The notes under the pieces: generated by a model
Databases searched by the model: none
Seen by the model: only the letters and a program-made list of their open reading frames with translations
What the model was told of the DNA's origin: nothing
Translations under genes and position numbers: made by a program
Assembly (NCBI GenBank): GCA_026014465.1
Contig: JAOZID010000010.1
Coordinates: 838,303 to 902,302, forward strand
DNA: 64,000 bases
Direction: 5' to 3'
DNA from: Candidatus Bathyarchaeota archaeon
GTDB lineage: Archaea; Thermoproteota; Bathyarchaeia; Bathyarchaeales; Bathycorpusculaceae
Shown: piece by piece, positions 21,581 through 51,379 of the stretch
Layout of the letters: each line of letters begins with the position of its first letter
How positions within the stretch are numbered: the stretch's first letter is position 1

Positions 21581-21704
21581 TTGTTTGCCGGTCAAAGGGC
21601 GCGGGTTCCACCTGATCCCGTTCCGAACTCAGAAGTTAAACCGTGTTCCGTTCCCATGTGTAGTGCGGTCTTCGGCCGCGTGAAAACGGGAAAGCTGGCA
21701 ACAC
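21581..21704 (+). rRNA. rrf: 5S ribosomal RNA (stand-alone, ends approximate)
   Basis: cctgatcccgttccgaactcagaagttaaac matches the conserved 5S core. 5' ttgtttgccgg can pair with 3' ctggcaaca as helix I. About 124 nt. The overlapping track ORFs have no protein-like character. Confidence 0.85.
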
Positions 21705-24046: not shown

Positions 24047-24134
24047 GCAGGGGTCTCCAAGCCAGGTCAACGGAGTAGGGCTTAGGACCCTATCGCGTAG
24101 GCGTTCGTGGGTTCGAATCCCACCCCCTGCACCA
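24047..24134 (+). tRNA. tRNA-Leu (anticodon UAG), class II with long variable arm, CCA encoded
   Basis: Hand fold. Acceptor gcagggg/cccctgc, D arm ctcc..ggag, anticodon stem taggg/cccta with loop cTTAGga, variable arm tcgcgtaggcgttc, T arm gtggg-ttcgaat-cccac, then a-cca. Confidence 0.9.
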
Positions 24135-24147
24135 TATATAAATAAAC
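24109..24147 (+). repeat. attL: tRNA-Leu 3' end plus 13 nt flank
   Basis: gggttcgaatcccaccccctgcaccatatataaataaac; 36/39 identical to 48737-48775. Confidence 0.85.
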
Positions 24148-24191: not shown

Positions 24192-25484
24192 TTAAAGCTT
24201 CCTTTTTCTAAAGATTTTAGCGTCTTGAAAATCGGTGACATATTCAAATCCTGCCTCTATTAGGCTGCAGACGTCTTTTTCGGTTTTAGCTACTTTAGAG
24301 ATGTAGTCGGTTTCTCCTTGGAAGAGGGCTTCTTCGAGTTGGATGTATAGCAGCGTGTTTTTGATGTTTTTGTGGCCGAGCCTTTGCATGACGTAGTAGA
24401 TGTCTTTGGTTTGATGGTAGAGTATGGTGCCTTTCCAGTGTCGGAAGGTGTGGAAGTGGATTTTCATCAGTCTTGGGTTGCTGAGCTTGCGGGCTAACCG
24501 TTTTCTTTGAATGCAGAATAGTGTTCCGAAGTGGTCAACTGGCATGGGTGCATGTGAAAAGATTCTTTCGCCGTAGATTTTAGGTATCTGCGTCAGCATT
24601 TCCAACATTTTATTGCTTAGGTGTACGACTCTTGGGTTACTGTTTTTTTCGGCTGTGATGTTTACGACTTTGCTTTCGAAATCTATGTCGTCCCATTTGA
24701 GCTGCCAAATTTCGCCGCATCGTGCGCCTGTTTCTTTGAGCATCTGCAGGAAAGTTGCCACGCGTTGGGTGCAGCCTGCGATGAGCTGGTCGATTTCGGT
24801 TTCTTTGGGAATGAAGGGCAGTTTGCGTATGCATTGGTATAGTGGGGCGTCCCATTTGCCGCCAGCCATTTTTAGGAATGAGCTGTAGGCGTCGACTGCG
24901 TTGTTTTTTCTGCCGTTGCTCCAGGTTTGTTTAGCTATGACTGCTTTGATTGTTTCGGGGTCGTAGAGGTCTGCGCCGCGTTTTACCATAACAAAGAGCA
25001 GTTTTGAGCGTCCAAGTATGGTTTGTTCGCTGTAGCCGCCTTTTTTCAACCACCAGATGTATTCAACGATTTTTCCTTTTACGTCAGGTTCGTTTCTCCG
25101 CAGAACTTCGGCTGTTTGAGGTTCTGCTGCCAAGTTTTTCGTCTCCATGACGCATATTTGGCTACCCTCTAGTATGCCCTCGAAGGTTTTTAATGACTTC
25201 GTATCAACGGTTGAAATATTTTCAATGGTTCGCTTTGCCTGCTGCAGGTCGTTTGGGTCTGAGAATCGCAGGCCACAGTCCCGGCAGATCCATCGTTGAA
25301 TCTTTTGTCCATAAAAAATTCGGTTGCCATCCCGCCAAACTTTTTTGGAGTTGCATCGTGGGCATTGGGGGCTGACGTCGGCGGAGCCGTCTGCAGACTC
25401 CGACTTACATGAGTTTGAACCGGCTTTGGTGGTGCCAAATACGCAGTCTGGGGGTTGTGTCGCGTTTGGTGTAAGTTCAGCCAT
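24192..25484 (-). CDS. int: tyrosine recombinase / integrase with N-terminal zinc ribbon
   Basis: CPRCNSKKV...CRDCGLRF ribbon. C-terminal catalytic blocks ARCGEI (Arg), HTFRHW (His-x-x-Arg), LGHKNIKNTLLYIQL (His..Tyr). Confidence 0.9.
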   Translation of the reverse strand: MAELTPNATQPPDCVFGTTKAGSNSCKSESADGSADVSPQCPRCNSKKVWRDGNRIFYGQKIQRWICRDCGLRFSDPNDLQQAKRTIENISTVDTKSLKTFEGILEGSQICVMETKNLAAEPQTAEVLRRNEPDVKGKIVEYIWWLKKGGYSEQTILGRSKLLFVMVKRGADLYDPETIKAVIAKQTWSNGRKNNAVDAYSSFLKMAGGKWDAPLYQCIRKLPFIPKETEIDQLIAGCTQRVATFLQMLKETGARCGEIWQLKWDDIDFESKVVNITAEKNSNPRVVHLSNKMLEMLTQIPKIYGERIFSHAPMPVDHFGTLFCIQRKRLARKLSNPRLMKIHFHTFRHWKGTILYHQTKDIYYVMQRLGHKNIKNTLLYIQLEEALFQGETDYISKVAKTEKDVCSLIEAGFEYVTDFQDAKIFRKRKL

Positions 25485-25861: not shown

Positions 25862-26251
25862 TTAAGGATACATCTTTAGCGCAGTTATCAACGCTTGGAG
25901 CTGGTCTTCTGGAGCCGTTAGAAGTAAAACATTCAGGTCTTTTTTTCTCAGTTCTATAGCCGCTCTTCCTCTTACGCTCAACTTGTAGAGGGGTGAGATA
26001 AAATGTGGTCTTGAATACCTAATGCCTTGAGTTTCCAGCCAATGCTGTTTATAGAGCGCTTTAACTCGTCTATCGACGTTTTGTTTTCCCTTGTGCCTAA
26101 ACCCCTTGATGGCTCTAACTTCTTTGAATATGTCGTAACTCGCCAAAAGCTTCCCATCTGGATAGAGAATCAAAAATATTAGGAAATTAAGGCTGGCTTC
26201 TCTACCGCTAAAAACCTTAAGACATGTGCCTTTACCTCGCTTCCCCGCCAT
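25862..26251 (-). CDS. winged-helix DNA-binding protein (PadR-like)
   Basis: 129 aa; FLIFLILYPDG..SYDIFKEV...VDRRVKALYKQHWLE pattern of PadR-type wHTH. Confidence 0.5.
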   Translation of the reverse strand: MAGKRGKGTCLKVFSGREASLNFLIFLILYPDGKLLASYDIFKEVRAIKGFRHKGKQNVDRRVKALYKQHWLETQGIRYSRPHFISPLYKLSVRGRAAIELRKKDLNVLLLTAPEDQLQALITALKMYP

Positions 26252-26429
26252 AGATGTCTACTCCCCAGACGGGAAGGAGGCAAAAACTGTGATGCCGCTG
26301 GCTGAAGGAAGTTTAGTTTAAAGAAGTATGGCAGCAAAAATATCATATTATCAAATACCTACATTGAGTGATTACCAAGCGGCTCACCTTAGTTGATTTC
26401 TAGACCGTTGAAATTAACCATAAAAGGCG

Positions 26430-26448
26430 AACTCCCTCGGAGGGAGTT
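26430..26448 (+). promoter_or_regulatory. palindromic box copy a (AACTCCCTCGGAGGGAGTT)
   Basis: Perfect 9+9 palindrome; cataaaagg TATA-like element 4 nt upstream. Confidence 0.6.
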
Positions 26449-26685
26449 TGATACTAGTGTAGAACAGTAATCCATTGCCAGCGAGTGTCTCTTTGAATCG
26501 TCAGAATTGTAGATTATATCACTGTTCAGGTCATTAGTTATGTTCCATACACTAATGAAAGGGCAACCAAGAAGAGACTAAAGGGAGAATTGAAGGGGCT
26601 TTGGGCAGTTCTTCGGCACATCGTTTTTTGGTGTCTCTTCTTGGCTGTCAAAGGTTTTTGTAACTAGCTTGAAGCATAAAAAGAG

Positions 26686-26703
26686 AACTCCCTCGGAATG
26701 AGG
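26686..26703 (+). promoter_or_regulatory. palindromic box copy b (AACTCCCTCGGAATGAGG)
   Basis: cataaaaag 2 nt upstream. ATG of 26705 ORF 2 nt downstream, consistent with a leaderless promoter. Confidence 0.65.
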
Positions 26704-26704
26704 C

Positions 26705-27706
26705 ATGTTTTTTACTTCTCTATCAGACCTTTTGACAAATAACAGGGTTGAGCGTTCCTTCCGTTCAATCTTCTCTTGGCGTTGGCTAATGGTAAAGAAA
26801 AAAGACGAACACAAGCTTAACTTAGAACTCAGGGTTGACTATCACTCTTCCCGCTTCTTTGCTCTTCTTTTTCCTGTTCTCTATTCTGTTGCTTTAGCTA
26901 TTTTCTGTTTTGCTTACAAAATAATGCCTGGTCCGGAGTTTCTGATTTTAGGTTTTCTGGTTTACGCAGCGTACAACAAGAAAACTTGGGGTTTCTTGAA
27001 GGATTGGCTTCCATTCATTACTATTTTTGTCTCCTACGAAATCCTCTATAGCGTAGTTGGTATGACCGTTGCAAACCGTCTCAATTCAGGTCCACTTAAT
27101 TTGGAGATGCAGTTATTTGGTCAAATTCCCAGTTTGCTTCTACAGCAAACTATCCGAATGCCTATTTTAGATTACACAGGCGCATTCTTCTATTCAGCTT
27201 ATTTCTTTCTCCCAACAATATTTGCATTCGTTCTTTGGAAGAAAAGCCCTAAAAACTACTGGAAATACATGATTGCATTTGGCGTATGTACCTTCTCTGC
27301 GCTGATAACATTTCTTTTCTATCCCGTAGCTCCTCCATGGATTGCCATTCCAAACGTTACCCCAATCTTAACCACTTCAGTGGATGCTAGCTTAGGTCTT
27401 CCGGTTTACAAGTGGATTTTTAATTTCCTCAATCCAGACTTGTATGCTGCTTTTCCAAGTATGCACTCAGCTTTACCTTGGCTGGTTTTCCTCTTTGCCT
27501 TCAAGACTTGGAAATGGAAAGCTCTCCCGATGATAGTTTTTCCTGTTGGAACTTGGTTTAGCGCAGTTTACTTAGGTGAACACTATTTCGTTGACGTTTT
27601 AGGCGGAATTGCCTATGCTACCGTCGCTTTCATAGCTGTAAATACAATTTTGCCATTCCTGTCTTGCCGCTTGAACCTATTAAAAAAGCATATTCCCCAA
27701 CTCTGA
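26705..27706 (+). CDS. PAP2-superfamily membrane phosphotransferase/phosphatase (Aur1/Ipt-like)
   Basis: Multi-TM. FPSMHSA and GEHYFVDVLGG resemble PAP2 C2/C3 motifs (S-x-H ... H-x-x-x-D). Confidence 0.6.
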   Translation: MFFTSLSDLLTNNRVERSFRSIFSWRWLMVKKKDEHKLNLELRVDYHSSRFFALLFPVLYSVALAIFCFAYKIMPGPEFLILGFLVYAAYNKKTWGFLKDWLPFITIFVSYEILYSVVGMTVANRLNSGPLNLEMQLFGQIPSLLLQQTIRMPILDYTGAFFYSAYFFLPTIFAFVLWKKSPKNYWKYMIAFGVCTFSALITFLFYPVAPPWIAIPNVTPILTTSVDASLGLPVYKWIFNFLNPDLYAAFPSMHSALPWLVFLFAFKTWKWKALPMIVFPVGTWFSAVYLGEHYFVDVLGGIAYATVAFIAVNTILPFLSCRLNLLKKHIPQL

Positions 27707-27762
27707 GAAAAAATTGGACGGGTGGGGCTAAGTTTTTTGATTATCCTTCTTATGAGTTGGAA

Positions 27763-28086
27763 TCAATTAGATGTTGAAAAGGTCTGAGTGGCGTTTTCTA
27801 TTGCTGTTTCGCTTATTTGTTTCTCAATAAGTCGATAGTTGCTTGCCATAGCTTGTGACAAACAATATGTTGTACCGTATCCGTCTTGAATTGTACGAAC
27901 AAGATGGTTCTTTTGGAGAATTTCAAGATGATGGGTGATGGTTTTATAGCTAAGCTTAAGGCGCTTTGAAAGTTGATTAGCGTTTTGTGGTTCTTCTTTT
28001 AGGGTTCTGAGTATAATCGCTCTGCTTGGTCCGCCTCTATTGCCAGTTAAAAGTTTCCAAAAAGGAGGAAAAAGGGGGGTTGTCAT
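27763..28086 (-). CDS. ArsR-family wHTH transcriptional regulator
   Basis: RAIILRTLKEEPQNANQLSKRLKLSYKTITHHLEILQKNHLV. Confidence 0.8.
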   Translation of the reverse strand: MTTPLFPPFWKLLTGNRGGPSRAIILRTLKEEPQNANQLSKRLKLSYKTITHHLEILQKNHLVRTIQDGYGTTYCLSQAMASNYRLIEKQISETAIENATQTFSTSN

Positions 28087-28196
28087 GGAACGTTATGTCC
28101 ACATCGTTGTAACGTATTGTTTGGAAGGCTGATAAAAAAACAGCCTGCCTTGACATCTTTTAGCTCTGACGTATGCATCGTTTTCATATCAGATTC

Positions 28197-28997
28197 CTAA
28201 TTGAACTCTTTGCGCTTGAACATAATCAAGCCTACGACTGTCGTAACAATTAGGTAGACTGCCATGATTGCTAATCCTTCTGGAACAGTAGGATTGTAGG
28301 ATGTCATTGTTGTGCTGCCAAAGTGGTTCACAGTTACATTAGGCGGATAGGGGTTTTGAAGTATAGTTGACATAATTGATCCGCCGTAACTTAGGCTAAA
28401 CCATGGTTCTACAGGAATCATACCTGCAATTTGGCTGATGATACTAAATCCTAACATGAGAACAACAATGTCTACAATGAATGCGTTAGTGCTGCTCTTG
28501 AATAGTGAGCTTACAAAGAAGACGAATCCAACGATGGCTGCAAGGTAGAAGTAGGCAAACAGCACTGACAAACCAAATTCAGACGGAACAGCGTTATAGT
28601 ACAGCCCAGTCAACGTTATAGACGCTGCAAATACGCCAAATGTGATGCATGCTGCTATGAAAGCGGACAACCACTTACCTATGTAAATCACTGACCTGCT
28701 AATAGGGTTTGGAACACTAAAGTATCCTGTTTTATTCTGGAACTCGCCAGATATGGCATCTCCGCCAAAGAAAACTACTGACAGCGTTATGAATATGGGC
28801 GAAAATGTTCCCCATAATCCAAAGATACCCTTGCCCACGAAATAAGCTAAAGCCACGCTCATTACAAGCGTTAAAGCCATCAGTATAAGAAAACGCCTTG
28901 ACCTGATATAGTCAAGCAAGGTATACTTCATTATGACGCCTATCTGTGCGAATTTGGACGGAACTTTGTTAATACATCCAGATTTTGTTCTAATCAT
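28197..28997 (-). CDS. ABC-2 type transporter permease
   Basis: 6 hydrophobic segments, directly downstream of and abutting the ABC ATPase. Confidence 0.75.
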   Translation of the reverse strand: MIRTKSGCINKVPSKFAQIGVIMKYTLLDYIRSRRFLILMALTLVMSVALAYFVGKGIFGLWGTFSPIFITLSVVFFGGDAISGEFQNKTGYFSVPNPISRSVIYIGKWLSAFIAACITFGVFAASITLTGLYYNAVPSEFGLSVLFAYFYLAAIVGFVFFVSSLFKSSTNAFIVDIVVLMLGFSIISQIAGMIPVEPWFSLSYGGSIMSTILQNPYPPNVTVNHFGSTTMTSYNPTVPEGLAIMAVYLIVTTVVGLIMFKRKEFN

Positions 28998-28998
28998 T

Positions 28999-29937
28999 TT
29001 ATTTTCCTCCTTTTACTAGTTTGAGATAAGCCTCTTCAAGCGCTGATGATGCCGGTTTGAAGCTGACTAACCCAATTTTCAAAGCGAAAATATCGGCGAG
29101 AACTCGTTCCTGCACGTCAATTCCGCCCGCAAAATGAACCAACAGCGTATTCTCATCTTTTTCGTCAGCCGACTCTACGCCCGAAATTGAAGTGACCTTG
29201 CTCATTATTCCAGGTGTGATTGAGTGGCGTATGCCTACTTCGACGATGTTTTCTCCGTTAGATGCCTTTGCTGTTACGTTAGCAAGTGTGTCATGGACGA
29301 TCAGTTTACCTTGATCAACCATTGCAACTTCATCGCAGACATCTGCGACTTCACTGAGAATGTGTGAGCTCATGAAAATCAGTCTTTGATGGTTTTTTAG
29401 GGACTTTATTATATCTCTGACTTCGCTCATTCCCCGTGGATCCAGCCCTGAGGTGGGTTCGTCTAGCAGAATTATACAAGGGTCGCTTAGAAGCGCTGAG
29501 GCTATGCATATTCTCTGTTTCATGCCCTTGGAGAACTTGTTGACTCTTTTGTCAATCCAGTCTTCCATTTTAACTTCTGAGATTGAATATTCTATTCTGC
29601 TCTGTTGCTCAGAACTTGGCACTCCTCGGATTTCAGCAATCATTTTTAGTGCTTCTCTTGCGGTTAGTGAGGAGTAGATTTCTGGGGTTTCAATTAATGC
29701 GCCGACAGATGCGAGTGCTTTCTCTTTCTGTTTGTGCACGTCAACTCCGTTTATGAGAGCTTTTCCCGAAGAAGGCGTGATTAGGTCGGTAAACATTTTG
29801 AGGGTTGTTGTTTTTCCCGCGCCGTTAGGGCCAAGAAAACCGACGCATTTTGCGCCTTCCGCTTTGAGATTTAGGTTTGAAACAGCAGTAAAAGAACCGT
29901 ACTGTTTCGATAGGTTTACTGCTTCAATTGATGGCAT
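28999..29937 (-). CDS. ABC transporter ATP-binding protein (ABC-2 subfamily)
   Basis: Walker A GPNGAGKTT, signature FSKGMKQRICIA, Walker B IILLDEPTSGLD. Confidence 0.9.
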   Translation of the reverse strand: MPSIEAVNLSKQYGSFTAVSNLNLKAEGAKCVGFLGPNGAGKTTTLKMFTDLITPSSGKALINGVDVHKQKEKALASVGALIETPEIYSSLTAREALKMIAEIRGVPSSEQQSRIEYSISEVKMEDWIDKRVNKFSKGMKQRICIASALLSDPCIILLDEPTSGLDPRGMSEVRDIIKSLKNHQRLIFMSSHILSEVADVCDEVAMVDQGKLIVHDTLANVTAKASNGENIVEVGIRHSITPGIMSKVTSISGVESADEKDENTLLVHFAGGIDVQERVLADIFALKIGLVSFKPASSALEEAYLKLVKGGK

Positions 29938-29985
29938 TTTGATTCACCTTTATCTCAGTCCATTAGCGGAGACACTTAAAAGGCG

Positions 29986-30003
29986 GACTCATTCCGAGGG
30001 AGT
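29986..30003 (-). promoter_or_regulatory. palindromic box copy c (minus strand reads ACTCCCTCGGAATGAGTC)
   Basis: 49 nt upstream of the ABC ATPase ATG (29937). A/T-rich elements on both sides (cttaatta / ttaaaagg). Confidence 0.6.
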
Positions 30004-30032
30004 AATTAAGAAACAACGGAAAAAAAGATAGT

Positions 30033-30329
30033 TTAAGTTTTTATGCCTAATCTTGGGAATTTGAGTTGCCCCACATACTTCATTATCCACTGCACAAAGT
30101 CGTCGTATGCTTGAGCGCCTTCTTTTGTTAAAACGACCAAGCCGTTTTCGTCAATTGTGATGAAGCCCTTCTCAGACATCCAGCCTAAATACTTAATCAG
30201 TTTATCATATGCTAGACCCGTTGTAGTGGCGAGGGCTGTTTTATTCATCCTGTTTTTCTCTTTCAGCGCCTTGATTATTCGGGCGATGACGTAGAGGTCA
30301 GGTTTAGAACTCGGCTCTCCTGAGTTCAT
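30033..30329 (-). CDS. winged-helix DNA-binding protein
   Basis: 98 aa; NKTALATTTGLAYDKLIKYLGWMSEKGFITIDENGLVVLTKEG is a wHTH recognition helix plus wing. Confidence 0.6.
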   Translation of the reverse strand: MNSGEPSSKPDLYVIARIIKALKEKNRMNKTALATTTGLAYDKLIKYLGWMSEKGFITIDENGLVVLTKEGAQAYDDFVQWIMKYVGQLKFPRLGIKT

Positions 30330-30999
30330 TGCTAAACCACCGTAACTCCCAAAGAAGATTATCTAATGCCCTAATCTGATTATAACGCCTCGAAAGGTCG
30401 TTTCTTAGCAGTAAGAAGACTACCAGCAGCGAAACTAGGCCTAACAAAGGACCACCGATTACATCTATTCGGTGAAATAGGGTAAATGTGATAAAATTCT
30501 CTGCTATACCTATCGCAAAGAATGTTATTACCCAGTAGGCGACAGCTTTAAGCAACCCATATACGGCATAGCTTAGTCGTCCTCTCGAAATTTTGTCAAA
30601 TGTTTCGTCCCAATCCAAATCCAGCAAGATTTCTAGTGCTGAGGGAAAGCCCTGAGAGAGCGCTTCTTTCCAGTCACCTGTTCGGACTGAATCGACATTT
30701 TTTCTAACTACCAATACGCCTATTGCAACGCCCGTAATGGGGATAAAAAGTGACAGAACAGATATTATGATGATGTGAGGTTTGTCAAGGGGTATAGCTA
30801 AGTTTAGGAAGCCTATTGACGCGCCTACTGCTAGGAAAACTATGATCGAACTGATAACAATCAGGGCGAATTTCTTTAGAGAACTGGAGAGCGCGTTGTA
30901 TTTTTTGACTTGGTCAAGAGTTTCCATTAACTCAGAGACTTTCGAAACTACGCTTTCCTCTGTTAATCCTGAGTTGGTTCCAACTTTTTTCTCTGACAT
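30304..30999 (-). CDS. integral membrane protein, unknown function
   Basis: 231 aa, ~5 TM segments. Overlaps the downstream wHTH gene by 26 nt (operon). Confidence 0.6.
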   Translation of the reverse strand: MSEKKVGTNSGLTEESVVSKVSELMETLDQVKKYNALSSSLKKFALIVISSIIVFLAVGASIGFLNLAIPLDKPHIIIISVLSLFIPITGVAIGVLVVRKNVDSVRTGDWKEALSQGFPSALEILLDLDWDETFDKISRGRLSYAVYGLLKAVAYWVITFFAIGIAENFITFTLFHRIDVIGGPLLGLVSLLVVFLLLRNDLSRRYNQIRALDNLLWELRWFSNELRRAEF

Positions 31000-31074
31000 G
31001 TTATTACCGCCTAAACTCGTAATGAAGGCTTAAGAGTCAAAACATTTACGTTGACTCCAAGTGAATATAAACTA

Positions 31075-31092
31075 AACTCCCCCTGAATGAGT
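31075..31092 (+). promoter_or_regulatory. palindromic box copy d (AACTCCCCCTGAATGAGT)
   Basis: aatataaac 2 nt upstream on plus strand. Lies in the intergenic region upstream of minus-strand gene 30304..30999. Confidence 0.55.
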
Positions 31093-31159
31093 TGACAGTG
31101 GAAATCTATCTATTGGTTAGGTCCTTTGCTTATTTTGTATTTGGAAGGTTCTTGCTTCC

Positions 31160-31741
31160 TCAATATGCTTTATATAAGAGCGTTGGTGGCGTATAGCCGT
31201 TTGGTTGATTGTGCAGCGAGTAATGTCGAGGTTTCATACTGAAGAAGCCAAGGGCGGCAAATATCCATGCAATCAATATCAGCAGTAATCCGACTAATAG
31301 TATGGAGAATACGGAACCCCACCAGAGCAAAGTGCCTGCAGTTTTAAACAATGTGTCTCCAGACTTCTCAGCAAGTGCATTGAATGTTTTCCTCAGATAA
31401 GTTGTAGCAAGCACGAAGAACACAAAACCCGTTATGAGACCTCCGATAAGAATGATTAATCCAATTTCAAAGCCTATGGTGAACTCGAAGGTTGCTCCTG
31501 CAAATAGACCTGCGGAGGCAAAACTAACCAGCATTGCTGCAATGGCTGCTCCAACTGCAATTAAAGCGACTGAATAGTATTTGAGGCCCATCCGAGTATT
31601 TTTGTGGATGCCTTCGTCTTGATAATAGTTTGAGAATTCTTTTGTTGCTTGAAGGAGTAGAACTATGCCTATTACGCCTAAGCCCCAGCCGACGAATGGA
31701 ATTAAGCCGAGCAAAAGCAATATTGTAGCTTCGATTGCCAC
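31160..31741 (-). CDS. integral membrane protein (DUF996-like by recollection)
   Basis: 193 aa, 4-5 TM segments; GLIPFVGWGLGVIGIVLLLQATKEFSNYY N-terminus. Confidence 0.55.
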   Translation of the reverse strand: MAIEATILLLLGLIPFVGWGLGVIGIVLLLQATKEFSNYYQDEGIHKNTRMGLKYYSVALIAVGAAIAAMLVSFASAGLFAGATFEFTIGFEIGLIILIGGLITGFVFFVLATTYLRKTFNALAEKSGDTLFKTAGTLLWWGSVFSILLVGLLLILIAWIFAALGFFSMKPRHYSLHNQPNGYTPPTLLYKAY

Positions 31742-31846
31742 GGTTTTGCTGCATTGAAAGTTAACGTTTATTCTCCTCTACCCCCTTTTCGATTAACCAG
31801 AGTTTAGGCGTCTAGCATCAGGTGGATTTTAAGCACTTATAAACTG

Positions 31847-31864
31847 AACTCCCTCCGAATGAGT
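31847..31864 (+). promoter_or_regulatory. palindromic box copy e (AACTCCCTCCGAATGAGT)
   Basis: cttataaac 2 nt upstream. Sits between divergent genes 31160..31741 (-) and the MscS gene (+). Confidence 0.6.
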
Positions 31865-32126
31865 CAGCTTTTTACCTCTTTACCAGATTTTTGGCAAGGT
31901 ATTCGATTTAAAAAATTGAAGCGAGAGATGTAATACGGCTACCCTTTCAGAAACTCTTCAGCAAATACTCAATACAAATGCTGCTAACGCTGAAATCTTA
32001 GCGTCCATTATCCTATTCGTTACTATTGCTGTTGTAGGATGGGGCACTTACCTTGTTTTTAGCAGGTACTTTTCTAGATGGGCAAAGAAGACTGAGACCA
32101 CAATAGACGATGACATACTCGTCGCC

Positions 32127-33020
32127 GTGAGAACAATAATAGTAATAATGATAGTGATACTGGGAATAGAGTATGCCCTCCAACCGCTATCATTCTTACA
32201 ACCATACAGGGATACCTTAAACGAATTGTTCACGGTACTCCAAATCTTACTAGGCGCATTTGCCTTAACCAGAGTCTCAAACATACTAGCGGACTGGTAT
32301 GCTGACCGAAATAAACTCATAGCTGGGAAAAGCAGCAAGCATATTTTGTTTATTCTCAAAAAAGCTGTTCAAGCAGTGATTTTCATCTTTGCTTTTCTTA
32401 TCATACTATCTGTCTTCAACATTGACCTCAGCGGCGCAATCGTGGGCTTGGGCGTCGGAGGCATCGCCATCGCGTTTGCCCTACAAACGGTACTAAGTGA
32501 GTTCTTCAGCACTTTCTCCATTTATTTTGACCGCCCCTTTGAGATTGGAGACTTTATCGTGGTAGGCGATTATAGTGGTACTGTAAAAAACATCGGCATC
32601 CGGTCAACCAGGCTCCAACTCCTACAAGGTGAAGAACTCGTTATATCTAACAAGGAGCTAACGGAGCATAGCGTACGGAACTTTAGGAAGCTAGAGAAGA
32701 GGCGTGTAACCTTCAACTTGGGCGTGACATATGACACGTCATCGGAGAAACTGCGAAAAATCCCGCTTATCATAAAAGAAATCTTCGACAAGATTGAGTT
32801 CGCCGAATTAGATAGGGTTAACTTTACCGAGTTCGCCGATTACAGTCTAAAGTATCTTGTTATCTATTATGTGAACTCATCTGATTACGGCACATACTTG
32901 GATACGCAGGAGAAAATAAACTTGGCAATTAAGGAAGCGTTTGAATGTGAAGGAATAGAAATGGCATTCCCAACAAGCACAGTCTACATCAACAAGTCAG
33001 TTGATTTCAAGCCAAATTAA
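32127..33020 (+). CDS. MscS-family mechanosensitive channel (N-terminus probably longer, see findings)
   Basis: Pore-helix block GAIVGLGVGGIAIAFALQ, followed by FDRPFEIGDFIVVGDYSGTVKNIGIRSTRL beta-domain. Confidence 0.88.
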   Translation: MRTIIVIMIVILGIEYALQPLSFLQPYRDTLNELFTVLQILLGAFALTRVSNILADWYADRNKLIAGKSSKHILFILKKAVQAVIFIFAFLIILSVFNIDLSGAIVGLGVGGIAIAFALQTVLSEFFSTFSIYFDRPFEIGDFIVVGDYSGTVKNIGIRSTRLQLLQGEELVISNKELTEHSVRNFRKLEKRRVTFNLGVTYDTSSEKLRKIPLIIKEIFDKIEFAELDRVNFTEFADYSLKYLVIYYVNSSDYGTYLDTQEKINLAIKEAFECEGIEMAFPTSTVYINKSVDFKPN

Positions 33021-33135
33021 CTATTGACTAAAGAAACTTGCGTGTTATTTGTCGTCAAATGTTAACGTTAAAATTGTTAAGAAAAGGCTTAGGCATCAGG
33101 ATATTTCAAAGTTAATCTTTAGCGGATATAAATTG

Positions 33136-33153
33136 AACTCCCTCGGAATGAGG
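33136..33153 (+). promoter_or_regulatory. palindromic box copy f (AACTCCCTCGGAATGAGG)
   Basis: gatataaat 2 nt upstream; ~110 nt upstream of the ABC ATPase start 33263. Confidence 0.65.
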
Positions 33154-33262
33154 TACAAACAAAAATACGAAATAATACCAGTCTATGCAGTGGTTGCCCG
33201 CTTGAAGAGGGGCATGCCAAAAATCTAAATGCGGTAAACTCTAATGATTAGAGGGGTTAAAC

Positions 33263-34057
33263 TTGCTCAAAACTAACGCTATTGTGTCTGGTTCTTTAGC
33301 ATTAAAATTGACGGGTGTTTCTAAACGCTACAGTGATGTGACAGCAGTAAATAGTCTTACCTTAGAGGTAAGAAAAGGTGAAGTTATCGGTCTTTTAGGC
33401 CCCAACGGTTCAGGCAAATCAACGCTCATTAAAATGATGCTGGGCTTAGTCAAGCCTGACAGCGGAACCATAAACGTTTTAGACCTTCCCCTGCAGCAGA
33501 ATTCTATCGGAGTAAAAAAGAGAGTGGGCTACGTGCCTGAAGATGCTGGCGCTTACGAGTTTTTGACTGGGCTTGAGTTCCTTGACTTTGCTGGCGACGT
33601 TTTTGGGATGGATTTGGGGGAGAAGAAAAAACGGATCGAAGAGTTCCTCAAGGCGCTGAGTTTAGAGGGCAGGGAAGGTGACATGATAAGTGGTTATTCG
33701 GAGGGTATGAAAAAGAAAATTCTAATTATATCAGCGCTCATGCACAAACCCGAACTGCTGCTCTTAGATGAACCGCTAAATACTCTTGATCCAAAGTCAG
33801 CTAAAATCGTCAAGGACCTGCTGCACCAATTAGCCCAGCAGAATGTAACCACCGTTATATCGACTCATGTGTTGGAGATTGCCCAAGCTATATGCAGCCG
33901 CATAGCCATAATGTATGAAGGAAAGTTAATTGCAGTTGGGACGATGGATGAGTTGAGGCAGCAGGCAAAAATGCCCAATTCAGCCTTAGAAGACATTTTC
34001 CTCAAGCTTACTGGAACAGATGATGTCCAACCCATTGTTGAGGCACTCTCGAAATGA
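33263..34057 (+). CDS. ABC transporter ATP-binding protein
   Basis: Walker A GPNGSGKST, signature YSEGMKKKILII, Walker B LLLLDEPLNTLD. Confidence 0.9.
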   Translation: MLKTNAIVSGSLALKLTGVSKRYSDVTAVNSLTLEVRKGEVIGLLGPNGSGKSTLIKMMLGLVKPDSGTINVLDLPLQQNSIGVKKRVGYVPEDAGAYEFLTGLEFLDFAGDVFGMDLGEKKKRIEEFLKALSLEGREGDMISGYSEGMKKKILIISALMHKPELLLLDEPLNTLDPKSAKIVKDLLHQLAQQNVTTVISTHVLEIAQAICSRIAIMYEGKLIAVGTMDELRQQAKMPNSALEDIFLKLTGTDDVQPIVEALSK

Positions 34058-35748
34058 ACTGGAAAACCGTCCTACTGCTTATAAGTGTAAATCGGAAAGC
34101 TAAACGAACAATTCAAGAATCCAAGCTTAGAAGATACCAAGAGAACAAACTATTCACCTACGGCATGTATTTGCTGGCTTGTTTGATAGGCATAATAGCG
34201 GGAGGATTAATCGGCAACTTTTACTCAGCATCCAGCCAGACAATGCAAAGCGCTGTTTTAGATGGCGCAAAATACTTCTTAGTAACTATCCCGACCATTG
34301 TTCTGCTCTACGGAGTAGTCTTTACTCAGATAAATCAGGTACAACGCATGGGCGCTAAAGTTTCAGTTCAGCCCATGTACTGGTTTCCCATCTCTTGGAA
34401 AGAACACACCTTAGCATCCATAATATCGAGCCTGCTTGGCTTACCCTTAGCAATCACAATTTTAATCAGTTCAGCCGTTTTGACGGTGTCTGTTTTTATG
34501 GGGATAATCCCCATTGCAATCCTCACCGTATTGGCATTATCGGCAAGCCTGCTCTTAGCCAGCGCAACAACCGAGGTCTTCAAAACCCTACAGCTCAGGC
34601 TACTTGGCGCAGTAACAAAGGGTGCTGGAAGAAGCGCCATCTGGCTAAGACTCGCCTTCTCCATAGGCGCAATGATTGTATTTTATGCGGTTTACTATTC
34701 GATCATTAATCAAGTAACGCCTACGCTTCTCTTTGAAGCCGTAGCTGGCGGGCAAAGGATGCTTTGGTTTATTCCTTATGTGTGGCCGGGCATGGCGCTC
34801 TCTGCATTCGCCAGCAACCTCTGGATGGAAGCGTTTCTCTTCTCTTTGGCAAGTCTTGGTTTCATAGCCGCTATCTTCTATGTGGCAACATACGTTAACA
34901 CTCGATTTGGACTGTATCAGTTACCCACAATTAGGCTATCAAGCGGCGTCTATATGCCCAAGCAGAGCTTGTTTGCAAAGCTAGGTTTCTCCACTGTTGA
35001 GGCAGCACTTATGAAAAAAGAGTTTAAAACGGTTACTAGACGCCATGAGTTAAGTTTTATCTTTATTTTTCCCATAAGTATGCTTATGCTTGTTTTTTTT
35101 AATGTTCTGAGGGCGCCTCAAACAAGTCCTGTACCAATGGGCGGTTACTCATTTTTGTTTGTTCTAATAACGTTAATTCCAGGGCTTATGATGCTTCCTC
35201 TTTTGGGAACATTGCTGACAACTTTGGAGGGCAATAGTATTTGGTATTTGTTTTCGTCGCCTATTTCTGCCAAGTCGATTGCTAAAGCAAAAATTTTCTT
35301 CCTATCATTCTTTGCCCTATCGATTACTTTGATTTGTTCAGTAATTGGCGGTATTGTGTTTAGACCACCGGCGCTGGTTATAGCCGTGACTTTGCTTGAA
35401 GCGGTGTTCTTGATTTTTTCTCTATCTGCTATTTCAGTTGCCATCGGAATCAAAGCGGCTGAACCAAGAGGTATCTTTGGCGTTAGCAAGATGGTTAAGC
35501 CAAAGTGGGCTCTACTTGGATTTATCCTCTGTGTTGCCATCGGTGCAGCTATTATTGCCCCGATTATTCCCTATGCCTTGAGCATTTTTGCTGTTTCATT
35601 TCTCCCAACCATACTGCAGCTTCCAGAATACTATGTTTATCTTGCATTACTGTTAAGCGGCGTAATCGCAGTTTCTATGACGTACATCTTTCGGGGGGTT
35701 GCAGTGGATAATGCTGAACAGTTGCTTGCTGACCCCGACGCTATTTAA
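34054..35748 (+). CDS. large polytopic ABC transporter permease-like membrane protein
   Basis: 564 aa, >10 hydrophobic segments, 4-nt overlap with the upstream ATPase gene. Confidence 0.7.
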   Translation: MNWKTVLLLISVNRKAKRTIQESKLRRYQENKLFTYGMYLLACLIGIIAGGLIGNFYSASSQTMQSAVLDGAKYFLVTIPTIVLLYGVVFTQINQVQRMGAKVSVQPMYWFPISWKEHTLASIISSLLGLPLAITILISSAVLTVSVFMGIIPIAILTVLALSASLLLASATTEVFKTLQLRLLGAVTKGAGRSAIWLRLAFSIGAMIVFYAVYYSIINQVTPTLLFEAVAGGQRMLWFIPYVWPGMALSAFASNLWMEAFLFSLASLGFIAAIFYVATYVNTRFGLYQLPTIRLSSGVYMPKQSLFAKLGFSTVEAALMKKEFKTVTRRHELSFIFIFPISMLMLVFFNVLRAPQTSPVPMGGYSFLFVLITLIPGLMMLPLLGTLLTTLEGNSIWYLFSSPISAKSIAKAKIFFLSFFALSITLICSVIGGIVFRPPALVIAVTLLEAVFLIFSLSAISVAIGIKAAEPRGIFGVSKMVKPKWALLGFILCVAIGAAIIAPIIPYALSIFAVSFLPTILQLPEYYVYLALLLSGVIAVSMTYIFRGVAVDNAEQLLADPDAI

Positions 35749-35808
35749 GAGCATATCATGCGAGGCTTATCAGCGCAACTCGATAAGGTTCTGATTCCTT
35801 TTTAGTCG

Positions 35809-35826
35809 CACTCCCTCAGAGGGAGC
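35809..35826 (+). promoter_or_regulatory. palindromic box copy g (CACTCCCTCAGAGGGAGC)
   Basis: CTCCCTC-aga-GAGGGAG palindrome between the permease stop and the 35859 ORF. Confidence 0.55.
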
Positions 35827-35858
35827 AACTCTTTAATTTCTAAGTAGATAACAAGCCT

Positions 35859-36137
35859 GTGGGTGTTATGATGTTGTGGACAGGTAAGTTATCTTTGGTT
35901 ATTCTATGCTTAATTTTGCCTGTCTTGATAATACCACTCATCAGCATTCTCTTATTTCCCGAAGCATCTTTAACTACATCCATTCTCGTCGGCGTCGTTT
36001 TTTCTCTGTTTGTCGCCATTGGACTGCGACTTATACAAGGGGCAAAAGCTATTGGAGCACGCTTCATTATCGCCGTAATAATTATCGCTGTTTTGTTTGG
36101 TTTATTAGCGGGAGTTCTCCTCAAACTCTTAAGTTGA
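35859..36137 (+). CDS. small membrane protein
   Basis: 92 aa, three hydrophobic helices. Confidence 0.5.
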   Translation: MGVMMLWTGKLSLVILCLILPVLIIPLISILLFPEASLTTSILVGVVFSLFVAIGLRLIQGAKAIGARFIIAVIIIAVLFGLLAGVLLKLLS

Positions 36138-36243
36138 GTTACTCGATAGGGGCAGAACGCTTGCCTAAAGAGGCTGTGCTTCTGGAGTTTAAGCATGTAA
36201 ACGGTTCTGGCTGACTAACTATTGTCTCAGGAGCGATTAGTTT

Positions 36244-48736: not shown

Positions 48737-48775
48737 GGGTCCGAATCCCACCCCCTGCACCAAATATAAACAAAC
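48737..48775 (+). repeat. attR: displaced copy of tRNA-Leu 3' end plus flank
   Basis: gggtccgaatcccaccccctgcaccaaatataaacaaac. The 21-nt perfect core cgaatcccaccccctgcacca is shared with 24114-24134. Confidence 0.85.
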
Positions 48776-51330: not shown

Positions 51331-51379
51331 CTTATCACGTAGGCGTTAGTGGATTCAAATCCCACCCACCCCTGCACTA
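51331..51379 (+). repeat. degenerate copy of tRNA-Leu 3' half (variable arm to acceptor)
   Basis: cttatcacgtaggcgttagtggattcaaatcccacccacccctgcacta versus tRNA 24089-24134; about 42 matches with a 2-nt insertion. Confidence 0.7.

Follow-up and report, generated by a model that had tools for sequence, protein, structure and literature searches.

A palindromic box at the promoters of an envelope and transport module in Bathyarchaeia and its putative winged-helix regulator

Introduction

The staphylococcal systems BlaR1-BlaI and MecR1-MecI, which sense beta-lactams, have an autoregulated operon in which a membrane-protein gene is followed by the gene of a small winged-helix regulator, with palindromic operators in the promoter shared with the resistance gene. 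The same logic, though not the same proteins, probably holds in a 64,000-nucleotide stretch (hereafter the window) of contig JAOZID010000010.1 from a Candidatus Bathyarchaeota archaeon. Seven copies of a short palindromic sequence, the box, mark a module of envelope and transport genes there, and the box is probably the operator of a 98 amino acid (aa) winged-helix protein whose gene is overlapped by that of a 231-aa membrane protein. The likeness is one of logic only: the 231-aa protein has neither the sensor nor the zinc-protease domain of BlaR1/MecR1 (no Pfam match, no fold match), the regulator belongs to family HTH_45 and not to Penicillinase_R like BlaI/MecI, and the promoters are archaeal, built of a TATA element and a transcription factor B recognition element (BRE).

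Other described systems share single traits with the locus. In the peptide-antibiotic modules of the Bce type (BceRS-BceAB) and the LmrR-LmrCD/MarR-type exporter repressor modules of Firmicutes a regulator and an intramembrane-type sensing protein adjoin and control an ABC exporter, and phosphatases of the PAP2 type are recurrent partners of exporters in envelope defence. In contrast to the Bce-type modules, the archaeal locus has no histidine kinase or response regulator and its ABC types vary, being ABC-2 in the window and MacB/FtsX in the related locus L172 (L numbers designate the loci compared). AspA of the Sulfolobus plasmid pNOB8 and Sso10a are winged helices of about 90 aa with a long C-terminal helix, and they are the best structural matches of the model predicted for the 98-aa protein. 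AspA recognises a palindrome located where its own operon begins; unlike the protein studied here it is a centromere-binding, spreading protein with ParB/ParA partners, and no ParA/ParB-like family is found among the Pfam matches of the 16 open reading frames (ORFs) tested between 24192 and 38332.

Short sites at a fixed position relative to BRE and TATA are known in archaea for EarA at fla, TrmBL1 (TGM), GvpE (upstream activating sequence, UAS) and Lrs14/MDR1-type repressors. In the gvp system one site, the GvpE UAS between gvpA and gvpD, is shared by diverging promoters. The position of an archaeal regulator site relative to BRE/TATA decides the outcome of binding (PMC5512572). The box differs from all these sites in sequence, regulator family and lineage, it abuts TATA at 3-5 nucleotides (nt), and its orientation is reversed between the two promoters of the conserved cassette. 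No regulator-operator pair is known to have been described for Bathyarchaeia, and literature searches on regulators of this lineage and on the HTH_45 family (PF14947) returned nothing.

The box in the window

The box has 17-19 bp, follows the consensus AACTCCCTC-N-GAATGAGTT and is present seven times at 26430-35827 (copies a to g, from left to right). It was first noticed in a reading of the letters of the window (the original prediction), which listed seven intergenic copies, two of them perfect palindromes. All seven were located again and none elsewhere in the 64 kb. The perfect palindromes are a (26430) and g (35809), while boxes b-f have one CCCTC arm and one CATTC arm each, and the map of ORFs and Pfam matches places every copy between genes; box b overlaps nothing but a stretch at the 5' end of an ORF that lies before the start used by homologues. 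With a weight matrix derived from the seven copies, their own sites score 19.4-28.1 bits and the next-best match of the window 11.9 bits, with maxima of 11.6-16.9 bits in 20 shuffled windows; no eighth copy was found when the whole 64 kb was scanned with it. The arms are separated by 1 nt, not by the 1-3 nt proposed originally, and a search pattern with a 3-nt centre (NNN) has 0 matches in the window. The A/T-rich, TATA-like hexamer reported to the left of five copies exists on the plus strand at all seven, 3-4 nt from the box. Likeness among the copies stops at about 31-38 nt.

A conserved cassette with a box at both promoters

The box is not restricted to the window. An exact-pattern scan of one genome per species gave at least 120 stretches; at least about 16 of the matches listed are in metagenome-assembled genomes (MAGs) of Bathyarchaeia, several with two inverted copies about 1.07 kb apart. 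In 15 of the 15 Bathyarchaeia loci examined the box stands beside a cassette arranged as at 28197-30999 of the window, where the following genes are found:

30304..30999, minus strand: membrane protein of 231 aa, no known family, overlapping the start of the winged-helix gene; proposed signal-input partner
30033..30329, minus strand: winged-helix protein of 98 aa, Pfam HTH_45; proposed box-binding autoregulator
28197..29937, minus strand: ABC ATPase (28999-29937) and ABC-2 permease (28197-28997), the conserved effector operon of promoter P2

The order membrane protein, 98-aa winged helix (74-83% identical), ABC ATPase and ABC-2 permease is kept, and this four-gene cassette, whose two promoters are marked by the box, is present in more than 100 Bathyarchaeia contigs. 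Promoter P1, whose box is upstream of the membrane-protein gene, drives the 231-aa protein and the winged-helix protein, while P2, whose box follows the winged-helix stop codon and precedes the ABC ATPase, drives the ATPase and the permease. Eighty further metagenomic loci retrieved via the regulator protein have the same layout. Among metagenomic loci whose regulator is at least 69% identical, 51 of 58 have a box at P2 and 37 of 43 have one at P1, against a background of 4.4% of random 400-nt windows that contain one. In 417 kb there are 93 strong boxes; 82 are at P1 or P2 and the remainder mostly at P2-like promoters further downstream. The initial view of a promoter-associated cis-regulatory site that joins envelope and transport genes in one regulon is supported.

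Matches outside Bathyarchaeia, among those listed, are chance singles or fall in what appears to be conserved coding sequence, those of Mesorhizobium being shared only across close relatives. In four other archaeal loci (L109, L123, L128, L152) the 17-mer is present and the 30-40 nt around it are also alike; the hand translation, ...NSLRMRPDRI..., makes these matches look like a coincidence in coding sequence. A scan of viral contigs gave 49 single, unclustered matches, which is chance level.

Geometry of the box promoters

Read in gene direction, P1 consists of CTCATTC-N-GAGGGAGTT, 3 nt and the TATA element TTTATATT, and P2 of ACTCCCTC-N-GAATGAGTT, cgcc and TTTTAAG. In 132 unique promoters (50 P1-type and 82 P2-type) information content is high only in the box and TATA, the spacer between them being 3-5 nt; a site conserved at orthologous promoters within unconserved flanks is as expected of an operator. 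Past box and TATA, the ABC ATPase comes as the first ORF in 60 cases and the membrane protein in 53. The distance of 41-66 nt from the box to the ABC start codon is standard for an archaeal promoter, being the sum of spacer, TATA, about 23 nt up to the transcription start and a short leader. Since the order box, 3-5 nt, TATA, gene is conserved, the box lies on the upstream (BRE) side of TATA, roughly at -35 to -52, and not in the -20 to -2 interval where it had been placed at first. Seen from TATA, the boxes of P1 and P2 are reverse complements of each other. This reversal is found in both paralogous regulator clades, so the asymmetry is conserved, and it is presumably functional.

These promoters bear directly on a structural or mobile origin of the repeat, as an RNA or DNA hairpin (terminator or processing site), a remnant of a miniature inverted-repeat transposable element (MITE) or repetitive extragenic palindrome (REP), or a recombination site. 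The box is indeed palindromic, intergenic and carried by a mobile island, a T-run follows it on one strand, and the P1 and P2 copies are inverted around the membrane/winged-helix pair. A full stem can form, however, in only 1 of 50 unique boxes: mismatches affect the central pair 5-13 in 92% of them and the central pair 6-12 in 74%, with no compensatory change. The P1 box is upstream of its promoter and hence not transcribed from it, and the region has no match to a structural RNA family of Rfam. Against a MITE or REP, conservation ends at box and TATA with no longer repeat unit, copies are found only at promoters of the module, and the viral contigs offered nothing beyond the chance-level singles; against a site of integrative elements, most loci have no tRNA gene in the stretch examined. 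The processed hairpin and the MITE remnant that the original prediction had named as ways in which it might fail are therefore not borne out, and a structural or mobile repeat is largely refuted and highly improbable.

The candidate regulator

The 98-aa protein belongs to Pfam HTH_45 (PF14947; 35.0 bits against a cutoff of 25.5, E 1.5e-8). A homologue search yielded 397 proteins in Bathyarchaeia, nearly all of 98 aa and already annotated as PF14947; the 100% protein matches in the homologue searches have locus tags NWF04_06665/06670 in a Candidatus Bathyarchaeota MAG. AlphaFold predicts for it a winged helix that ends in a long helix at the C terminus (predicted local distance difference test, pLDDT, 75), and the best structural matches of this model are AspA (TM score 0.73, E 8.5e-5), Sso10a and MarR. 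Sequence similarity to AspA is not significant (E 0.36), and the protein falls outside the Sso10a family of chromatin proteins as defined by NCBIfam NF053610 (40.2 bits, cutoff 60).

This protein is the sole regulator present at every box-bearing locus, the ArsR, DUF7347 and HTH_20 genes being variable, and boxes always flank its gene. Locus L175 has a paralogous membrane/winged-helix pair, with a regulator 68% identical. At the two promoters of that pair the box is a variant, ACTCACTC-N-GAAGGAGT at one and the reverse of it at the other. The variant half-sites ACTCACTC/ACTCCTTC are also found in L222, L236, L238, L239 and L240. Box sequence hence covaries with the regulator paralogue, which as a single clade-level event gives modest support. 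Together with the linkage this makes a strong inference that the 98-aa protein binds the box.

A different binder could be, for example, ArsR (27763-28086), the 129-aa protein at 25862-26251 or a host factor, the 98-aa protein being merely regulated. In favour of ArsR, its gene is probably transcribed together with the ABC operon in the window and in L170, and L220 has a box followed by an ArsR-like gene. Yet at most loci with both boxes ArsR and the 129-aa protein are missing, a host factor from elsewhere in the genome would leave the restriction of boxes to the neighbourhood of the membrane/winged-helix pair unexplained, and in L175 box and winged-helix paralogue change together. Another binder is thus unlikely, and among the three winged-helix candidates named originally the protein at 30033..30329 is the best, the other two being absent from most loci.

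The second membrane/winged-helix pair of L175 (1317-4983 of CP166960.1), with its variant box, drives a PAP2/VTT fusion gene that diverges from an LPG_synthase_TM (MprF-like) gene and reinforces the lipid and envelope theme. Regulator genes of the DUF7347/HTH_20 type lie in or near the module in L170 (10415-10885), between the winged-helix gene and P2, and in L172 (4736-5470).

The membrane partner

The synteny of the 231-aa protein and the winged-helix gene is conserved. This protein has 201 homologues, none with a Pfam domain, its model is all-helical with long helices (pLDDT 82), no fold match was found in the PDB, and searches of PHROG and NCBIfam gave no meaningful match. From its sequence we infer a topology of four membrane helices joined on the outside by loops of about 8 residues, with invariant helices at the N and C termini, both in the cytoplasm. 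Both partners end in invariant segments, WIMKYVGQLKFPRL in the 98-aa protein and LLWELRWFSxELRRAEF in the 231-aa protein. The latter represents a membrane protein family specific to Bathyarchaeia, without assigned fold class, that is likely the signal input of the circuit.

The seven window boxes and the genes they serve

Both flanks of each window box were scored with a TATA matrix built from the promoters of the relatives. The boxes are:

26430..26448, minus strand: box a, perfect palindrome AACTCCCTCGGAGGGAGTT; TATA TTTTATGG at 26418-26425 (minus), leftward to the 129-aa gene and the integrase
26686..26704, both strands: box b, diverging TATAs, TTTTATGC at 26674-26681 (minus) leftward to the integrase side and TTTTTACT at 26709-26716 (plus) to PAP2
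29986..30004, minus strand: box c, promoter P2; TATA TTTTAAGT at 29974-29981 (minus); ABC ATPase, ABC-2 permease and probably ArsR
31075..31093, minus strand: box d, promoter P1; TATA TTTATATT at 31064-31071 (minus); membrane-protein/winged-helix operon
31847..31865, both strands: box e, diverging TATAs, TTTATAAG at 31836-31843 (minus) to DUF996 and TTTTTACC at 31869-31876 (plus) to MscS
33136..33154, direction ambiguous: box f, P1-like; good TATA on the left only, TTTATATC at 33125-33132 (minus), facing the 3' end of MscS
35809..35827, plus strand: box g, perfect palindrome; TATA-like TTTAATTT at 35832-35839 (plus), to a 92-aa membrane ORF; left TATA weak

Six of the seven boxes fit the layout of box, then TATA, then gene, box f being the exception. 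Counted about 23 nt past these TATA elements, transcripts are predicted to begin near 26395, 26650, 29951, 31041 and 31813 on the minus strand and near 26739, 31899 and 35862 on the plus strand; for box f, a TATA-then-box mode would put the start near 33155 on the plus strand. Box a has a significant TATA score on its left flank only, and its promoter and downstream sequence resemble L056, which adjoins an integrase remnant. Box b scores p<=0.008 on both flanks; L208 has independently the same layout of PAP2, TATA-box-TATA and then the membrane/winged-helix operon. The TATA-box-TATA arrangement of box e recurs in L170 and L171, where the box lies between MscS and the membrane/winged-helix operon. 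A single TATA firing both ways at b and e is discarded, as a second TATA was scored on the other side of each box. Small ORFs on the TATA side of boxes b and f were looked for, with nothing convincing.

The arrangement proposed originally was the opposite one, with an operator between TATA and start (-20 to -2) at every unit, where a repressor would block recruitment of RNA polymerase, TATA read rightward at every copy, and a leaderless messenger RNA at b. The plus-strand A/T hexamer 3-4 nt left of every box speaks for it, as does box f, whose only nearby gene is on the right. The conserved promoters contradict it: boxes a, c, d and e serve minus-strand genes past box-then-TATA, a separate TATA lies to the right of b, e and g, and the reverse order is kept in the 132 unique promoters with fixed distances from TATA to start codon. 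At box b the ATG taken for a start 2 nt past the box is part of spacer and TATA (atgTTTTTTAC); the PAP2 homologues of L170, L171 and L208 begin at residue 29 of the window ORF, which places the PAP2 start at 26789. A box downstream of TATA relative to its gene is thus discarded at P1 and P2 of all relatives and at six window copies, and could apply only at f, which leaves the TATA-then-box model as a whole very unlikely.

Proposed mechanism

We favour, as the probable reading, that the box is the autoregulated operator of the 98-aa HTH_45 protein, that it acts in repression with the membrane protein as signal input, and that it was expanded on the island. The protein would bind, probably as a dimer, to two unequal half-sites, ACTCCCTC and ACTCATTC, 1 nt apart, and the operator would cover or touch the BRE position read by transcription factor B (TFB). 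P1, the regulator's own operon, and P2, the adjacent ABC exporter, would form the ancestral circuit. At boxes b and e one operator between diverging TATAs would control both directions. The bound regulator would block assembly of TFB and the TATA-binding protein (TBP), and the co-translated membrane protein would sense the state of the membrane or of the transporter and relieve repression. Repression is preferred because the operator leaves only 3-5 nt before TATA. Steric interference with TFB/TBP by sites inside the promoter is a documented mode of repression (PMC5512572).

The same protein and site could act in the opposite sense, as an activator that recruits TFB/TBP to a BRE-poor TATA, with a shared UAS at b and e. 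EarA, Ptr2, TFB-RF1 and GvpE, which recruit TFB/TBP from just upstream, are models for such a role. A constant distance separates the box from the TATA downstream of it, and activators typically bind directly upstream of BRE/TATA (PMC5512572). The purine-rich BRE of the 5S rRNA and tRNA-Leu promoters of the window (GCGAAAGG, CCAAAGG) is absent from the box promoters, a comparison that comprises two canonical promoters only. With a spacing of 3-5 nt, however, the box overlaps rather than precedes the usual 6-7 nt BRE, and the near-consensus P1 TATA TTTATATT should need no help. Small winged helices of the MarR, PadR and AspA kind that are paired with exporters are usually repressors. Activation is a serious alternative, though the less probable sign.

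The 5S rRNA gene (21584-21703), 2.3 kb before the tRNA-Leu attachment site, has the promoter GCGAAAGGTTAATTGG, which serves as the canonical BRE/TATA reference; no other rRNA gene is detected in the window by Rfam.

Several points weigh against repression through the 98-aa protein. The box promoters lack a purine-rich BRE, which makes the sign of regulation doubtful. Activator-dependent promoters, such as EarA-controlled fla, are characterised by a weak BRE and a regulator site directly before it (PMC5512572). The assignment of the regulator to its site draws on co-occurrence and one case of paralogue covariation, and the protein may have a partly non-specific, Sso10a-like architectural role. 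Boxes may also lie outside the module in Bathyarchaeia genomes, the pattern scan comprising the at least 120 stretches listed. Box f has no gene on its TATA side.

The integrative element and growth of the regulon

The left end of an integrative element is marked by two features:

24047-24134, plus strand: tRNA-Leu gene
24192-25484, minus strand: tyrosine integrase

The 3' end of the tRNA-Leu gene (24109-24147) is repeated at 48737-48775 (92% identity) and 51333-51367 (89%), which suggests two tandem integrative elements of about 24.6 kb and about 2.6 kb, with one integrase seen (24192-25484). The GC content is 0.38-0.44 (about 0.42) at 26-54 kb versus 0.46-0.54 (about 0.49) in the flanks. Integrase, tRNA 3'-end repeats and GC drop therefore place the boxes inside an integrated element. 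A neighbouring tRNA gene is not typical of the module, most relatives having none near it within the stretch examined.

Two or three boxes are typical of other genomes. L170 and L171, whose regulators are 94-95% identical to that of the window, have a three-box version and an integrase remnant; the window has in addition DUF996, the second ABC system, a small ORF and four more boxes. The island version is therefore the largest seen of this module, its operator apparently expanded from 2-3 sites to seven. The regulon that had been described as self-contained on the island is an enlarged form of a conserved Bathyarchaeia module normally equipped with 2-3 sites. On the tRNA-Leu element the operator would have been copied to PAP2, DUF996, MscS, the small membrane protein, the 129-aa/integrase side and perhaps the second ABC system.

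Other genes of the module

The gene assignments made at first (PAP2, ArsR, ABC-2, HTH_45 winged helix, DUF996, MscS and second ABC system) agree with Pfam. Besides the cassette the module contains:

25862..26251, minus strand: 129-aa protein downstream of box a, no match in the family search
26789..27706, plus strand: PAP2_3 lipid-phosphate phosphatase-like membrane enzyme, start corrected to Met29 of ORF 26705-27706
27763..28086, minus strand: ArsR/HTH_5 protein of 107 aa downstream of the permease (Pfam)
31160..31741, minus strand: DUF996 membrane protein (Pfam), served by box e
31935..33020, plus strand: MscS-type channel gene, frame open from about 31935, first standard start GTG 32127
33263..35748, plus strand: second ABC system, ATPase (33263-34057) and 564-aa 12TM_1 permease-like protein (34054-35748) (Pfam)
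35859..36137, plus strand: hydrophobic ORF of 92 aa downstream of box g, no match in the family search

Both proteins of the P2 effector operon score above the Pfam thresholds (ABC_tran 106 bits, ABC2_membrane 49.6 bits). They are DrrA-like and lantibiotic-protection-like, with NCBIfam subfamily scores below both cutoffs, so that no substrate can be assigned to the ABC-2 exporter. ArsR is part of the regulon in some lineages only: it is present in L170 and absent from most other loci, and in L220 an ArsR-like gene is driven directly by a box. The exporter of the L172 cassette is of the MacB/FtsX type. The effectors (ABC-2 or MacB/FtsX exporters, PAP2, MscS and small membrane proteins, with an LPG-synthase neighbour in L175) point to an envelope response or a response to antimicrobial compounds.

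In the MscS frame the approximately 63 codons before GTG (31935-32127) encode the first membrane helix, and ACG is found where L170 has ATG. The window channel may be truncated, a pseudogene or read from a non-standard start codon. The MscS homologue of L170 and L171 is split into ORFs of 161 aa and 127 aa.

The second ABC system is ruled out as a regulon member in other genomes, five contigs with homologues (L257, L259, L260, L261, L262) having no box there. Because these homologues are boxless and similarity to them is confined to 33309 - about 35770, boxes f and g are junction sequences of the island. Box f, whose sole gene within reach is the ABC ATPase at 33263 on its right, either acts on that gene in the TATA-then-box mode or is a relic. 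The cassette is 88% identical to chromosomal Bathyarchaeia copies from about codon 16 of the ATPase to just past the permease stop. Its similarity to L261 covers 33309-35773, 35886-35950 and 36160-36222 of the window, the pieces of the downstream and upstream flanks of L261 adjoining each other after the window cassette, as if the cassette had been circularised and then reopened at another point. The homologues share a leader, GGAGCACTTGCCTGT(G/T)GA, about 40-90 nt before the ATPase start (about 5105-5135 in L257, 6965-6995 in L261 and 625-655 in L262) that is absent from the window copy. In L257 a different HTH_45 gene, of 97 aa, lies just upstream of this leader, and the two may be another regulator-site pair.

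A 110-aa gene is found about 55 nt from the P1 box, reading away from it, in L050, L055, L067, L105, L117, L154, L187, L190 and L207. It has its own conserved AAATAAAT element; the L067 copy looks Rieske-like by eye, and a 109-aa gene annotated as Rieske occupies this region in L173.

Significance

The regulon is real and well supported. It is ordinary in principle and undescribed in its particulars, and offers no new principle of gene control. A bolder reading, which we put forward tentatively and hold to be rather improbable, is that of an undescribed archaeal signalling device. The winged-helix regulator would be bound or set free by a membrane protein of four helices that has hardly any external loops, and the operator would be read in an orientation-dependent manner, with its strong half-site proximal to TATA at the regulator's own promoter and distal at the effectors. 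Placed between two TATAs, such an operator would switch both directions simultaneously, and it would serve the integrative element as a portable tag that enrols captured envelope genes.

For Bathyarchaeia, an abundant lineage of sediments, the locus gives a testable pair, the putative 98-aa regulator and its site AACTCCCTC-N-GAATGAGTT, together with a promoter geometry and a core regulon composed of the regulator's own operon and an ABC exporter. It provides a natural example of the growth of a regulon on a mobile element. Its compact regulated promoters, including a bidirectional one of roughly 43 bp, could serve genetics in Bathyarchaeia.

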